IMG/VR virus record: IMGVR_UViG_3300043418_000226
Source: a virus
Lineage: Duplodnaviria; Heunggongvirae; Uroviricota; Caudoviricetes
Length of the DNA stretch: 64,000 nucleotides
Direction: 5' to 3' (one strand)
In this document: positions 28,560 to 46,630 of the stretch, one piece after another
Layout: each line of letters starts with the position of its first letter
Position numbering within the stretch: position 1 is the first letter of the stretch
Position numbers and translations under genes: made by a program
Notes under the pieces: generated by a model
What the model was told of the DNA's origin: nothing
The model's input: only the letters and a program-made list of their open reading frames with translations
Database searches by the model: none

Positions 28560-28743
28560 TTATGTGATTGCCAGAAAATGGTCGGATAAAGATAACCGAT
28601 TAAATTGTTACACATTTCATACCACAGTGTTTTATGGTGATATGGAAGATGCCAAAAATACTTTAGAATTCATTAGAGGTCGAGCCGACAATCCACCGGA
28701 ACAATACTCCATTTTCAAAATCGACGAAACACCTATTACATAA
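28546..28743 (+). CDS. Hypothetical protein
   Basis: 65 aa ORF. Confidence 0.5.
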   Translation: MDEFNYVIARKWSDKDNRLNCYTFHTTVFYGDMEDAKNTLEFIRGRADNPPEQYSIFKIDETPIT

Positions 28744-29081
28744 TGTTACCGTTTAAATTTTTTCAAAATACAGACTCATCTTCTATTTTGGATGACTATC
28801 CTGGTTGGACATGGACTGAAACAGATATGATGACCAGACGAGTTCGTCGTAATCACGAAATAGTTGATATGAATTATTTTGCGGAGAGTTATCGTATACA
28901 TGGAATTATTAATTTCTTAAGATTATTTAATCGAACCGATAGCGTTTACATATATTCAATGGAATGTAACGGTATTAGAATTTTTCATGATAACAACGAA
29001 CAAGGATGGCCATGGGATATTACCACAGAATTAATTACATTTGAGGCAATTATTATCCCAAGGGAAAGATTTTTTCTATAA
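28743..29081 (+). CDS. FKF-tag family protein (paralog of 30633)
   Basis: MLPFKFFQ; no Lys after the tag; WPWDI motif. Confidence 0.7.
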   Translation: MLPFKFFQNTDSSSILDDYPGWTWTETDMMTRRVRRNHEIVDMNYFAESYRIHGIINFLRLFNRTDSVYIYSMECNGIRIFHDNNEQGWPWDITTELITFEAIIIPRERFFL

Positions 29082-29084
29082 TAT

Positions 29085-29115
29085 TTTGTAGTTTATAAAA
29101 TATTGGTTATATTTG
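29085..29115 (+). promoter_or_regulatory. Bacteroidota-type promoter
   Basis: TTTG 29085 and TATATTTG 29108-29115. Confidence 0.7.
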
Positions 29116-29137
29116 TATAAATTTTAATACATTTCCT

Positions 29138-30136
29138 ATGTCAAGATTAGACAAACTTAAAGAATTACATCCCGAGTTAGCTAAGGTTTCAGTGATGGAT
29201 ATAATCGCATCTGCCGACCCGTCTACTACATACAAATATTGTGACTTCTTAGTTAAGATGTTCAAAAGAAACTTCACCCATATCGAAAATGGTCAGGTGT
29301 TAACTTCATTTATATCGGGACAATTATTTGGTAATGAATTTGTCGAAACGTTAAACAAATTTGAAGATCACCACAAAGCCAAGAGAATTAGGATTAAAGA
29401 CATTTCTTTATATTCATCATATGATGACATTAAAGTCCAAGTTGAAGAGGCTGATGAAGTTGTTCGTATTAAAGAACTTGAGAAAGATGCTAATAAAATC
29501 TATAACGATTCAGAATGGTTAGTTCTTATTCCTAAGACATATGAATCGGCAATGCTGTATGCTAACAACACAAAGTGGTGCATCACACAAAAGAGTTATT
29601 GGAATGATTATAAAAAACATACGAGGATAATTTTCGTTATCAATAAAAAAACAGATGATAAGTTTGCAATATCAAAAAGATTTGACGATAAAGTAATCCA
29701 AGGTTGGGATGCTAGAGACATTGAGACTTCACCATTGTTATGGGATTTCAATGATAACATATGGAAAGTTCTCCGTAAAGAATTAAAGAAATCTAAAATT
29801 GAAATTCAATTGGATGAATTACCAAACGGAATGATTTTCGGAAAGTCTAATTTAATGATTCCGTACGAAGATGCAACTTTACAAGAATTAGAAAGTTTCT
29901 TTAAAAAATTCGGAGATTGTCTTGAGGAAGAATTTAAAAATAAAATTGTCACTAAAGGTAGAGAACTGAGAGAGTTAGATGAAATTGAGAAGAGGTCAAT
30001 TAAAAAGTTTAGTTCATTACCAACAAAGAAAATATTAGATGAAACAGATTTATATCGTTGGATTAATAATGGTGATTCTGATTTAAACATTGACGACATA
30101 TTAAAAACCTATTTAACAGGCAAGTATTATGAGTAG
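29138..30136 (+). CDS. Conserved large-phage protein, paralog of 24372-25457
   Basis: MSRLDKLK, SAMLYANNTKWCIT. Confidence 0.7.
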   Translation: MSRLDKLKELHPELAKVSVMDIIASADPSTTYKYCDFLVKMFKRNFTHIENGQVLTSFISGQLFGNEFVETLNKFEDHHKAKRIRIKDISLYSSYDDIKVQVEEADEVVRIKELEKDANKIYNDSEWLVLIPKTYESAMLYANNTKWCITQKSYWNDYKKHTRIIFVINKKTDDKFAISKRFDDKVIQGWDARDIETSPLLWDFNDNIWKVLRKELKKSKIEIQLDELPNGMIFGKSNLMIPYEDATLQELESFFKKFGDCLEEEFKNKIVTKGRELRELDEIEKRSIKKFSSLPTKKILDETDLYRWINNGDSDLNIDDILKTYLTGKYYE

Positions 30137-30632
30137 AATAACGCACAGACCAGATTGGTGGAGAATAGAATACCAACTTCTAAAAAATAAAATTATGAAC
30201 GATACTCCTAAACGTTTTAAAGACTGTCAACATAAATTAGAAAGACTCCACAGTATAATACCAAAAAACGAAACGTTTAGGGATGTTGCATTTGGTAACT
30301 TTATTGATAACACATATCGTAAAGATTCTGATTACATCAATTTTAAAAATCAACATAATAAACCGAGTGGTACCAGTTCGTTAGCGGGTTCTAATTCAAT
30401 TACAACTTCATTGAATAATTCTGTGACACCAATAGATACCACAATGGGAAGTGATACTGAATCGGTTAAACCAAAACACAAACATGGACACGTTGAGCCA
30501 TATGTTTTTTCAGTTGAGCCGGTTAAAGAACCATCGAAAATTAAAAGTAACGTTAAGGGATTGGTAAAAACAATTCTTAAACCACAAATTGATGCAGTGA
30601 ATACAGTGGTAAAATTAATAACGAACAAGTAG
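30129..30632 (+). CDS. Hypothetical protein
   Basis: 167 aa ORF. Confidence 0.55.
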   Translation: MSRITHRPDWWRIEYQLLKNKIMNDTPKRFKDCQHKLERLHSIIPKNETFRDVAFGNFIDNTYRKDSDYINFKNQHNKPSGTSSLAGSNSITTSLNNSVTPIDTTMGSDTESVKPKHKHGHVEPYVFSVEPVKEPSKIKSNVKGLVKTILKPQIDAVNTVVKLITNK

Positions 30633-30983
30633 GTGAAAAGATTTAAATTCTTGGAGGATAACGTCAATAGTGAATATGAAGAAGAATATTTAGGTTTTGA
30701 CGTTGGGGTTGAGGAACAAAACGTATATGAATACGGTGAATACTCCGCAAGTTGGATGTGGACAAGAGATATGATTATATCACAACCTTATGAAATTCAA
30801 ACTATAAATTGTTTGGGTATCGGTGATTTCTTATCACAATTTCCAAATCACTTTATTGTAGCGATAAATTCAATTTCATCAAATGGAGTTGAGGTAACTC
30901 GTGACATTAATCACGATAACATTTGGCCATGGGATATTCATAACGACCCATTAACAATAGAATACTTAGAATTTATACCTTAA
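30633..30983 (+). CDS. FKF-tag family protein
   Basis: GTG start, MKRFKFL; no Lys after the tag. Confidence 0.7.
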   Translation: MKRFKFLEDNVNSEYEEEYLGFDVGVEEQNVYEYGEYSASWMWTRDMIISQPYEIQTINCLGIGDFLSQFPNHFIVAINSISSNGVEVTRDINHDNIWPWDIHNDPLTIEYLEFIP

Positions 30984-30985
30984 TT

Positions 30986-44940: not shown

Positions 44941-44966
44941 AATTTGTCAATTAAACATAATAAGAT

Positions 44967-45176
44967 ATGAAACCATTTGTTGAACAAAGAATGTACACAC
45001 AGACCGAACAGATTGCAATTGTTCAACCAAACGAAACTGATAACGGTGTTGTACTATGTGTACAAGAAGTAACCGAATCAACCAAGGAGACAAGATTATA
45101 TCTGACCTTTGATGAGGTGGATGTGTTGTCCAAGTTATTACAACAAATGAAAGAACACCTTAAAGATGGGAAATAA
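44967..45176 (+). CDS. Hypothetical protein
   Basis: 69 aa ORF. Confidence 0.55.
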   Translation: MKPFVEQRMYTQTEQIAIVQPNETDNGVVLCVQEVTESTKETRLYLTFDEVDVLSKLLQQMKEHLKDGK

Positions 45177-45441
45177 ACAAATATGGAAATTTGAGATTAA
45201 AGAAGGTTCTATCAGAATGCCCATTGGTGCAAAGATATTATCTGTACAATCACAAAGAGAACGTGGAATGATTTGGGCATTGGTTGACCCCAATGCGGAA
45301 GATGAACCGAGAAGTTTTGCCGTAGTGGGAACAGGAGAATCTTTTGATGAAACTAATATGACCTATATTGGCACATACCAAGAATCACCATTTGTTTGGC
45401 ATTTATTTGAGTGGAAAGATAAACAACAAGACAATGGATAA
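45166..45441 (+). CDS. Conserved phage hypothetical protein
   Basis: MPIGAKILSVQ.Q, VVGTG and YIGTYQ..FVWHLFE motifs. Confidence 0.7.
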   Translation: MGNKQIWKFEIKEGSIRMPIGAKILSVQSQRERGMIWALVDPNAEDEPRSFAVVGTGESFDETNMTYIGTYQESPFVWHLFEWKDKQQDNG

Positions 45442-45697
45442 ACCATCATTCGTACCCACATCCAAGTTCCCTGATGATATGAGGATTAAGATTGGACCAA
45501 AGTATCCCGATAAGACAATGGAACTTCCAATTAAAGGTAAAGATATTGAGGGAATAACTTCCAATGGTGATAAGGCATATTGTTTTAGATGTAATTGTAA
45601 GGACGATAACTGTATGGAATGGAGATGCTCAATTACTGGTTTTCACCTAAACGTTAATATAGTAAAATGGGAATATCTGACTTCATTGAAGAACTAA
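45434..45697 (+). CDS. Hypothetical Cys-rich protein
   Basis: Start ATG 45434. Confidence 0.55.
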   Translation: MDKPSFVPTSKFPDDMRIKIGPKYPDKTMELPIKGKDIEGITSNGDKAYCFRCNCKDDNCMEWRCSITGFHLNVNIVKWEYLTSLKN

Positions 45698-45763
45698 ACC
45701 AACCAGATAGAGTGGAGACCCGTCATATCACGATGTCCGTGGATATGTATAATGAAATAAGAT

Positions 45764-46102
45764 ATGAAACCCTTTAAATTCTTCCAAAAGGAAATAAAAA
45801 AATTTAACGTATATGAGGAAATGGTCCTTGGTATATTGGATTACTGCGGTGGAAATAATATAAATCCCGTTGGATATTCACATCTCTTTACAATCACCAC
45901 ATTGGAGGGGGTACAACATAAACGTATTGTTATAAGGAATGTTACCAGATATAATTCATTTCCCCTTAGAGTTTATATTAATATAGAATATAGTCTCCAT
46001 CTAACACAGGATAATGAAGAATATACGATTACAAACCATATTCTTACTATAGATGAGGATGAATACATTAGACTAACAGAAGAATACCATGAGAGAATTT
46101 AA
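45764..46102 (+). CDS. FKF-tag family protein
   Basis: MKPFKFFQKE. Confidence 0.7.
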   Translation: MKPFKFFQKEIKKFNVYEEMVLGILDYCGGNNINPVGYSHLFTITTLEGVQHKRIVIRNVTRYNSFPLRVYINIEYSLHLTQDNEEYTITNHILTIDEDEYIRLTEEYHERI

Positions 46103-46304
46103 GTTTTTCCAAAAACCTGATCCACTGTGTTGGATAACGGCAATGGGACAAGAGATACCAATTTCTGAAATGGATGGTGGACATATGTACAATATCGTGG
46201 GTTTATTAAAGGATAATATAATTCCAAACCCATACCTTGGAAAGACCAAGCAGGAATGGTTGACCATATTCGGGGACGAGTTAAAAGAAAGATACCTAAG
46301 ATGA
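46089..46304 (+). CDS. FKF-tag family protein (paralog of 38105)
   Basis: MREFKFFQKP. Confidence 0.7.
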   Translation: MREFKFFQKPDPLCWITAMGQEIPISEMDGGHMYNIVGLLKDNIIPNPYLGKTKQEWLTIFGDELKERYLR

Positions 46305-46630
46305 GAGAATTTAAGTTTTTCCAGAAGAGGAAGGTACATGGGGTGGATGTGACTTTACTAAGGTTATATCACAATAGGATTCATCAGGTTTATCTTAATA
46401 GATATGATTTTTCTATTAATGAATTGAATAGGATGAATAATTTATATAATGAGACAAGAAATTTCATTTGGAACTCGGACATTGTTCACTTCGATGGGAT
46501 AAGGGAATATTACCGGACCTATGTTCATTTTATTTTACATGGAAATATTGTTGAGAACGCTGAGGATACTATAACGGACAGTCATCATGAAAGAATGACA
46601 CGAAATTCCGAGGAATCCATGTATACCTAA
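46301..46630 (+). CDS. FKF-tag family protein
   Basis: Start ATG 46301, MREFKFFQKRK; no Lys afterwards. Confidence 0.7.
   Translation: MREFKFFQKRKVHGVDVTLLRLYHNRIHQVYLNRYDFSINELNRMNNLYNETRNFIWNSDIVHFDGIREYYRTYVHFILHGNIVENAEDTITDSHHERMTRNSEESMYT

Follow-up and report, generated by a model that had tools for sequence, protein, structure and literature searches.

Small proteins of a T4-like phage share an N-terminal FKF peptide and are purged of lysine behind it

We analyzed a 64,000-nucleotide (nt) stretch of viral DNA (hereafter the window; IMG/VR record IMGVR_UViG_3300043418_000226, Caudoviricetes), which is the final 64 kb of the 318,764-bp metagenomic contig JGI Ga0485287_000013 and has a GC content of ~33% and tight gene packing. 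Between positions 28743 and 46630, it carries 19 open reading frames (ORFs), all on the + strand and encoding 71-164 amino acids (aa), that begin with the same short peptide, here called the FKF tag. ORFs were counted as tagged if they start M-x(1-3)-F-K-F-[F/L], and lysine (Lys, K) in the protein body was counted after residue 13. Only M, F, K, and F are invariant among the 19 tags, and the bodies are mostly unalignable. The tagged ORFs, with Lys counts of the bodies and, where needed, the body families described below, are:

28743-29081, + strand: MLPFKFF, 112 aa, 0 Lys after residue 13, 10 Arg; family 7, with 30633
30633-30983, + strand: GTG start, MKRFKFL, 116 aa, 0 Lys after residue 13; family 7
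30986-31264, + strand: MVNNFKFF, 92 aa, 6 Lys after residue 13; family 4
31934-32341, + strand: MKTFKFF, 135 aa, 2 Lys; family 2
32399-32698, + strand: MNMSFKFL, 99 aa, 0 Lys, 10 Arg; own -7 box
38105-38335, + strand: MEKFKFKFF, 76 aa, 1 Lys; family 1 domain
38328-38642, + strand: MREFKFF, 104 aa, 0 Lys
38629-39123, + strand: MKQFKFL, 164 aa, 5 Lys
39110-39334, + strand: MKQFKFL, 74 aa, 2 Lys
39321-39692, + strand: MKRFKFF, 123 aa, 0 Lys
40376-40678, + strand: MKDFKFL, 100 aa, 0 Lys; capsid-protein similarity at residues 5-65
42697-43128, + strand: MKDFKFFQKE, 143 aa, 2 Lys
43125-43433, + strand: MIDFKFFQKD, 102 aa, 1 Lys
43436-43750, + strand: MKDFKFFSKD, 104 aa, 2 Lys
43737-43976, + strand: MKSFKFL, 79 aa, 1 Lys
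43963-44388, + strand: MKSFKFFQKE, 141 aa, 2 Lys; exact protein found on JGI contig Ga0485287_000013
45764-46102, + strand: MKPFKFFQKE, 112 aa, 1 Lys; family 3
46089-46304, + strand: MREFKFFQKP, 71 aa, 4 Lys; family 1, modeled with AlphaFold2
46301-46630, + strand: MREFKFFQKR, 109 aa, 0 Lys

Seven gene junctions are fixed 14-nt overlaps, six of them joining two tagged genes, in which the upstream TAA stop lies within the TTT-AAR of the next gene's tag:

38629, 39110, 39321, 42697, 43737, 43963, and 46089, + strand: 14-nt overlap junctions, TAA from the Phe-Lys codons TTTAAR

Because these overlaps place the stop inside the next tag, the upstream proteins have a recurrent C-terminus, HE[TR][IV]. 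The arrangement suggests coupling by termination and reinitiation.

The tagged bodies in the window contain 29 Lys in 1809 residues (1.6%) and 124 Arg (6.9%). This reproduces exactly the per-ORF counts and the total (29 in ~1800) of a preliminary description of the sequence, which had also called the interleaved untagged genes Lys-rich and Arg, Asn, Ile, and His prominent in the bodies. Both observations are correct: the untagged genes at 29138, 31254, and also 30129 encode 12.7%, 11.1%, and 12.0% Lys, and the four residues are enriched alongside the Lys loss. Seven of the 19 window proteins, and 21 of the 80 in our first set, have no Lys at all behind the tag, in a genome with ~8-9% Lys. With a lysine desert defined as a continuous Lys-free stretch over at least half of the protein, the tagged proteins have long Lys-free stretches beyond what composition gives. 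Untagged ORFs of matched size from the window have significantly more Lys (pooled K 7.8% vs. 1.6% in the tagged set; Mann-Whitney p = 5.5e-8) and less Arg (4.0% vs. 6.8%).

The tag is not confined to the window: its DNA pattern matches six IMG/VR and 35 metagenome contigs, all AT-rich and all with arrays of tagged, Lys-poor, Arg-rich small ORFs. One relative of 335,630 bp, rated complete and read whole (G001), has 22 tagged proteins in a single region that wraps around the contig ends, with 2.3% K against 9.2% in its untagged proteins (p = 8.5e-10). When their bodies are compared by BLAST, the 199 distinct tagged proteins form 49 clusters; one cluster is a chance tag on a homolog of a large untagged protein, which leaves 48 families. 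Per family, relative to 260 untagged ORFs, K has a ratio of 0.25 (p = 4e-20) and R one of 1.97 (p = 8e-14), with ratios of 1.44 for H, 1.30 for N, and 1.38 for Y, so that the lysine deficit is offset mainly by Arg and then by Asn, Tyr, His, Ile, and Thr. The bodies average 2.2% K and 7.6% R across families (K:R ~0.3), and base composition is not the cause (GC 0.335 tagged vs. 0.318 untagged). As judged by sequence clustering, the purge is convergent, being common to 48 body families that BLAST does not relate to each other.

Codon counts show where the selection acts. Tagged ORFs contain 1.4 in-frame AAA per 100 codons as against 6.4 in untagged ORFs, a 4.5-fold drop, and AAG falls 2.7-fold, while out-of-frame AAA falls only ~1.6-fold, and AAA that spans a codon junction without encoding Lys is not avoided (observed/expected 0.92-0.95 in tagged vs. 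0.97-1.01 in untagged ORFs). Since the loss is frame-specific and junction AAA is kept, selection acts on the Lys codon or residue rather than on the DNA; avoidance of AAA at the nucleotide level, such as of a ribonuclease site, is ruled out by the frame and junction tests. Among sequences of ~50% identity, Lys stands opposite an Arg site in 5% of comparisons within tagged families as against 17% of those between untagged orthologs, a 3.5-fold suppression. Because R-to-K exchange is suppressed at equal divergence, lysine is being kept out continuously and the purge is ongoing.

One proposal of the preliminary description concerns translation: Lys codons would be avoided so that the proteins can still be translated when a host anticodon nuclease cuts tRNA-Lys. 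An RNA ligase is encoded in the window and a tRNA-like array lies amid the genes, both of which would suit such a defense. However, every tagged gene has one to four Lys codons within its first 12 codons (at codons 2-12), AAA and AAG are both depleted, and the interleaved genes of the same operons encode 11-13% Lys. The Lys codons of the tag itself and these Lys-rich neighbors contradict the model, which we consider highly improbable.

The tag itself shows the opposite pattern to the bodies. Numbered from its first Phe, Lys occupies position -2 in 56% of tagged proteins, +1 in 100%, +5 in 40%, and +7 in 23%, but only ~1% of positions from +11 on, whereas untagged proteins have 8-11% Lys at the same positions. 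The Lys boundary is therefore sharp and lies ~11 residues past the first Phe. At the center of F-x-F-[FL], the residue is K in 199 of 203 cases, R in two, and N in two. In family 3 (ORF 45764), 100 of 102 database homologs are tagged, and all 100 have K at the tag center (mean K 1.4%). Synonymous codons in the tag vary at background rates or more (TTT/TTC, AAA/AAG, and six F/L codons at the fourth position), which indicates that the tag is conserved as a peptide.

The residues after the tag are polar (Q, K, N, E, D). An AlphaFold2 model of the family 1 protein 46089 has a predicted local distance difference test (pLDDT) score of 51 at residues 1-10 and 82-89 in the body, a beta-hairpin with two helices whose first strand begins at residue 14. 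The tag is thus predicted to be flexible or disordered in family 1, and the low-scoring tag ahead of a confidently modeled body suggests that lysine is tolerated in the flexible tag and linker alone. The model has no fold match in the PDB. A flexible, cationic-aromatic peptide might act on membranes, and its form K-x-F-K-F-F-x-K resembles the synthetic (KFF)3K carrier peptide. The tag could on these grounds be a membrane-active or translocation peptide whose cargo must lack lysine, either because lysine hinders passage or because it exposes the cargo to extracytoplasmic proteases. Nevertheless, the tag has no hydrophobic stretch or signal peptidase site of the Sec/Tat or lipoprotein kind, Arg is enriched in the cargo so that positive charge is not avoided, and there are no secretion genes nearby. 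We regard this reading as very unlikely; the absence of a hydrophobic signal segment leaves the translocation constraint proposed in the preliminary description unsupported.

Whether untagged homologs are equally Lys-poor can be asked in family 1 (window ORFs 46089 and 38105; body motif W-x-T-x-x-G ... H-I-x-N-I ... E-W), whose profile retrieves 385 cluster representatives from public data, the majority of which lack the tag. They are not: among the best 150 of the 385, tagged members have 4.5% K and 8.9% R, while untagged members have 9.1% K and 7.3% R (p = 5e-7), and untagged homologs of AT-like composition within this set have 9.7% K. The true contrast is larger because several members counted as untagged are tag variants with at most 3% K. 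By these comparisons, the purge in family 1 follows the tag and not the fold.

Several bodies resemble parts of the T4-type major capsid protein, which is the sole untagged protein matched by the tagged set in segment similarity of this kind. At residues 5-65, ORF 40376 shows homology to the final 59 residues of this capsid protein, with E-values of 1e-8 in a pairwise comparison and 3e-6 with a hidden Markov model (HMM). That capsid stretch has six Lys, all of which are replaced in the ORF 40376 copy, with KK becoming RR. A family 2 member of a relative (L037, 1953-2405) matches the mature N-terminal arm, FPIIRRV...VSVQAM (E = 6e-7 by BLAST, 4e-5 by HMM), and families 0 and 4 match the capsid arm and region 330-396 at ~4e-4 in pairwise BLAST only. 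HMM significance against the capsid protein is limited to family 27 and the one family 2 member. Capsid-like stretches with K replaced by R occur in several tagged proteins (40376-40678, 31934-32341, 43737-43976, 39110-39334, and L037 1953-2405). Profile-profile comparisons with the capsid protein are all weak (probability at most 10), and for many families the best weak match is the same C-terminal region.

This recurring match hints at a possible shared descent and so bears on the idea that low lysine was merely inherited from one Lys-poor ancestor or that it is an artifact of ORF calling. Against this are the 48 families unrelated by BLAST, the normal Lys content of untagged homologs, the suppressed R-to-K exchange, and the conservation of the tagged ORFs in hundreds of contigs; moreover, one of the proteins is confidently modeled as a fold. 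We therefore see very little chance that ancestry or artifact explains the desert, the least of any explanation considered here.

The position of the tagged genes in the infection cycle can be approached from their promoters. Intergenic regions of the window carry the motif TTG-N17-21-TAnnTTTG, which is the primary-sigma promoter form of Bacteroidota; from this motif, the host is probably in that phylum. The sites near the tagged genes are:

29086-29115, + strand: Bacteroidota-type promoter-like site, TTG-N19-TAnnTTTG, ahead of the operon 29138-32341 with three tagged genes
32380-32387, + strand: -7 box TAcaTTTG, belonging to ORF 32399
37303-37333, + strand: Bacteroidota-type promoter-like site ahead of the operon with tagged genes 38105-39692
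40696-40726, + strand: Bacteroidota-type promoter-like site upstream of the run leading to tagged genes 42697-44388
44687-44716, + strand: Bacteroidota-type promoter-like site ahead of a tRNA-like element and tagged genes 45764-46630

When the nearest upstream promoter-like motif is scored, tagged genes have 80 host-type and 12 late-like motifs, while the structural block has 47 late-like and three host-type. From these motifs, the tagged genes are most likely early genes. Lys-rich untagged genes (11-13% K) are interleaved with them in the same early operons. In G001, the structural genes are preceded by TATTTATA. The motif TATTTAT[AT], the reverse complement of T4's TATAAATA, is found at most 45 nt upstream of 56 of the 403 G001 genes, is concentrated at the structural block (112-160 kb), and also occurs at window positions 27859-27866; it is probably a late promoter.

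These promoters matter for a comparison with phage T4, in which unrelated small proteins of a fast-changing region share only a short N-terminal leader that begins MK-x-aromatic, the capsid-targeting sequence (CTS) of the internal proteins IPI, IPII, and IPIII (PMC3012670). Like the T4 CTS, the FKF tag is a leader of ~10 residues common to otherwise unrelated small proteins. The proteins are also of similar size, the arrays lie beside tRNA-like genes as well, and the clade is T4-like: G001 encodes a T4-type prohead protease (PF03420, gp21-type), a scaffold protein, a portal, and a gp23-like capsid protein, whose nearest named relatives are in an uncultured 484-kb phage, Microcystis phage Mel-JY01, and Flavobacterium phage immuto (40-44% identity). 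A relative of the capsid protein is encoded by 549 IMG/VR contigs. Since T4 internal proteins are likewise diverse and share only the leader (PMC3012670), the tag might target Lys-free cargo to the capsid, to be packed with the DNA and injected.

The details point the other way. The position logo has no conserved cleavage site (E/D or L/I-x-E) after the tag, whereas the G001 capsid protein keeps ...YLINE before its mature arm. Tagged genes lie behind host-type early promoters, not late-like ones as in the structural block. T4 internal proteins rely on lysine, through which they contact DNA, whereas the FKF proteins are purged of it. Furthermore, seven Lys-rich proteins of G001 (124-407 aa) begin with a leader of a separate class, MKL[LM]D[IL]xxE, and five of the seven have late-like promoters:

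15550, 18951, 19775, 21498, 21937, 42494, and 46929 of G001 (L008-L010): MKL[LM]D[IL]xxE leader proteins, mostly behind TATTTATA

This leader terminates in the T4 prohead-protease motif L/I-x-E and is, from its sequence, a better candidate than FKF for the true capsid-targeting sequence. We consider a capsid-targeting role for the FKF tag very doubtful.

The window and its relatives have further features of note. ORF-free tRNA-like arrays lie behind Bacteroidota-type promoters at window positions 35353-37304 and ~44720-44960. ARAGORN calls no tRNA in them, and the Rfam tRNA model fits 35764-35885 and 36332-36441 only with ~40-nt insertions in or beside the anticodon and variable region. Conserved Lys-rich paralogs of 330-360 aa (PHROG 17056) adjoin the arrays (window 24372-25457 and 29138-30136; G001 327075-328136), and one relative (L050) has acquired a tag-like start. 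An ESM Atlas search with a conserved 361-aa neighbor returned viral hypothetical proteins only, and Pfam and PHROGs gave nothing informative for untagged neighbors. A cluster of RNA and nucleotide enzymes occupies window positions 5443-18450; enzymes encoded in the window include:

2452-3291: GIY-YIG protein
7594-9540: UvrD-type helicase
11902-12921: RNA ligase, PHA02142 OB domain
16858-18450: nicotinamide phosphoribosyltransferase

Database searches yielded little on the tagged proteins themselves. A single-sequence homolog search with 28743 found only two close relatives, and a phage collection had no DNA or protein match to the region or to any tagged protein. Among curated families, Pfam had no match for the tagged proteins, and PHROGs had only marginal matches to families of unknown function. 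Bacterial genomes had two matches to the tag pattern, at 56% and 46% GC and without ORFs, which we take to be chance, and no host protein with the tag at the narrow pattern scanned. Tag arrays are absent from LR756508.1, Flavobacterium phage immuto, and Microcystis phage Mel-JY01, the closest named T4-like relatives. A full-text literature search returned nothing for the FKF tag, and it returned lysine deserts only in ubiquitin and Pup contexts and in mycobacteriophages, with a GC caveat.

Altogether, some coupling of the tag to lysine chemistry must exist. The preliminary description had proposed, among other models, that the tag lysine is the sole intended site of a Lys-specific protease or ligase. 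Lysine-directed chemistry at the tag fits best, given a center that is K in 199 of 203 tags and R in only two, ahead of bodies with a K:R of ~0.3; the word "sole" does not hold, as positions -2, +5, and +7 are also Lys-rich. We infer that one lysine-directed process underlies both the invariant tag lysine and the purge. In the explanation that we favor, the FKF peptide would be a flexible N-terminal handle of ~12-14 residues on the many small, rapidly evolving early proteins of a clade of T4-like jumbo phages, whose host is probably in Bacteroidota. The handle would offer a specific lysine, often with one to three more adjacent, to a lysine-directed enzyme or partner. Once the tag brings the protein near a lysine-reactive center, selection would clear Lys from the folded body, in most cases by exchange for Arg, and leave the tag as the only part able to react. 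Because the purge extends over folded domains, side-chain chemistry would fit better than backbone cleavage, and a side-chain transferase or ligase (for conjugation or acylation) thus seems more likely than an endopeptidase. That the tag presents its lysine in this way, and that the bodies have been purged of off-target sites, we put forward tentatively, as a serious possibility that falls somewhat short of probable.

Several points weigh against this explanation. The ThiF/E1, Prok-JAB, and trypsin-like (Trypsin_2) families are absent from the complete relative G001, no untagged gene family consistently accompanies the arrays, and no reader of the tag was found. The purge is also incomplete: family 4, which includes window ORF 30986, consistently tolerates Lys (6.6%), the one family to do so, and 18 of 80 bodies have at least three Lys. 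The structural evidence comes from one family with a shallow alignment. Finally, the bodies are Lys-poor behind FRFF, FNFF, and FKLL variants of the tag, so the central lysine can occasionally be lost. Such variants are rare in G001 (3301-3768, 10011-10541, and 16740-17162), and the bodies behind them still have 0-3.5% K.

Two separate processes could also produce the pattern. The tag would then be an address, assembly, or turnover label, while the bodies escape a host lysine-directed attack such as Bil/Bub-type conjugation and the Lys-rich tag is removed or buried; evasion of host conjugation was among the models of the preliminary description. The bodies have lost Lys but retain charge through Arg and His, the boundary at about residue 14 would suit removal of a short propeptide, and lysine deserts have been read in this way in ubiquitin and Pup systems (PMC13696103). 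This would leave unexplained why the tag residue is K and almost never R, however, and would leave the Lys-rich untagged genes of the same early operons unprotected, nor is there a conserved cleavage site behind the tag. Two processes therefore appear unlikely, if still worth considering.

Alternatively, the tagged proteins might be adaptors or pseudosubstrates that use the tag to dock on a lysine-directed protease or ligase and then block or divert that enzyme, with the desert preventing self-modification as in cullin-RING substrate receptors. One tag on many bodies would make a family of target-binding modules, a lysine desert with an N-terminal lysine cluster has been described for ubiquitin-system components, and in some bodies, segments of the capsid protein recur with Arg in place of Lys. 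But the proposal is pure analogy, and family searches in G001 found no ligase in the phage; we rate it as quite unlikely. A related idea, in our view improbable, is that the FKF proteins form an arsenal against host lysine-directed antiviral conjugation or acylation, in which the tag docks or is sacrificed and the Lys-free bodies, including the K-to-R capsid copies, would act as dead-end decoys or unmodifiable adaptors. Such an arsenal would be the bacterial-virus counterpart of the lysine deserts of the eukaryotic ubiquitin system and of toxins.

Those deserts, in ubiquitin-system proteins and in the Lys-poor catalytic chains of toxins routed through the endoplasmic reticulum, have the same K-to-R bias and the same N-terminal placement of the remaining Lys, and have been read as protection from lysine-directed conjugation (PMC13696103). 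Unlike them, the desert described here belongs to a bacterial virus, for which no ubiquitin or Pup system is known, is tied to a peptide tag, and lies in an AT-rich genome, where Lys is otherwise plentiful. For Lys-poor phage proteins, a 2023 study, as summarized in the same review (PMC13696103), proposed an adaptation to host lysine tagging. As the review presents it, that case concerns a whole proteome and is confounded by high GC, whereas here the desert is restricted to the tagged subset of a 33% GC genome, with Lys-rich neighbors as internal controls.

The tag may also be compared with ClpX degrons. N-terminal ClpX recognition motifs, e.g., that of lambda O, are hydrophobic-basic-hydrophobic and accept Lys or Arg. 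Like the tag, the lambda O motif is a short peptide of aromatic or hydrophobic-basic-hydrophobic character at the N-terminus of an early protein of a phage. The FKF tag differs in its K:R of 199:2, and ClpX degrons predict no lysine purge. To our knowledge, no described bacterial or phage system joins a universal N-terminal peptide to a residue-specific purge of its cargo.

Present in an uncultured T4-like lake phage of ~319 kb and in hundreds of its relatives, the tag is spread through an abundant clade. The FKF set, whose statistical signal is very strong, is a clean natural lysine desert that is not attributable to GC content, which was the main objection in the actinobacterial case. Together, tag and purge imply some lysine-directed activity that shapes early infection in uncultured jumbo phages of fresh and marine waters, whose hosts are probably Bacteroidota. 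Identifying what reads the tag could lead to a new pathway of protein modification or processing, or to a new defense/counter-defense pair.

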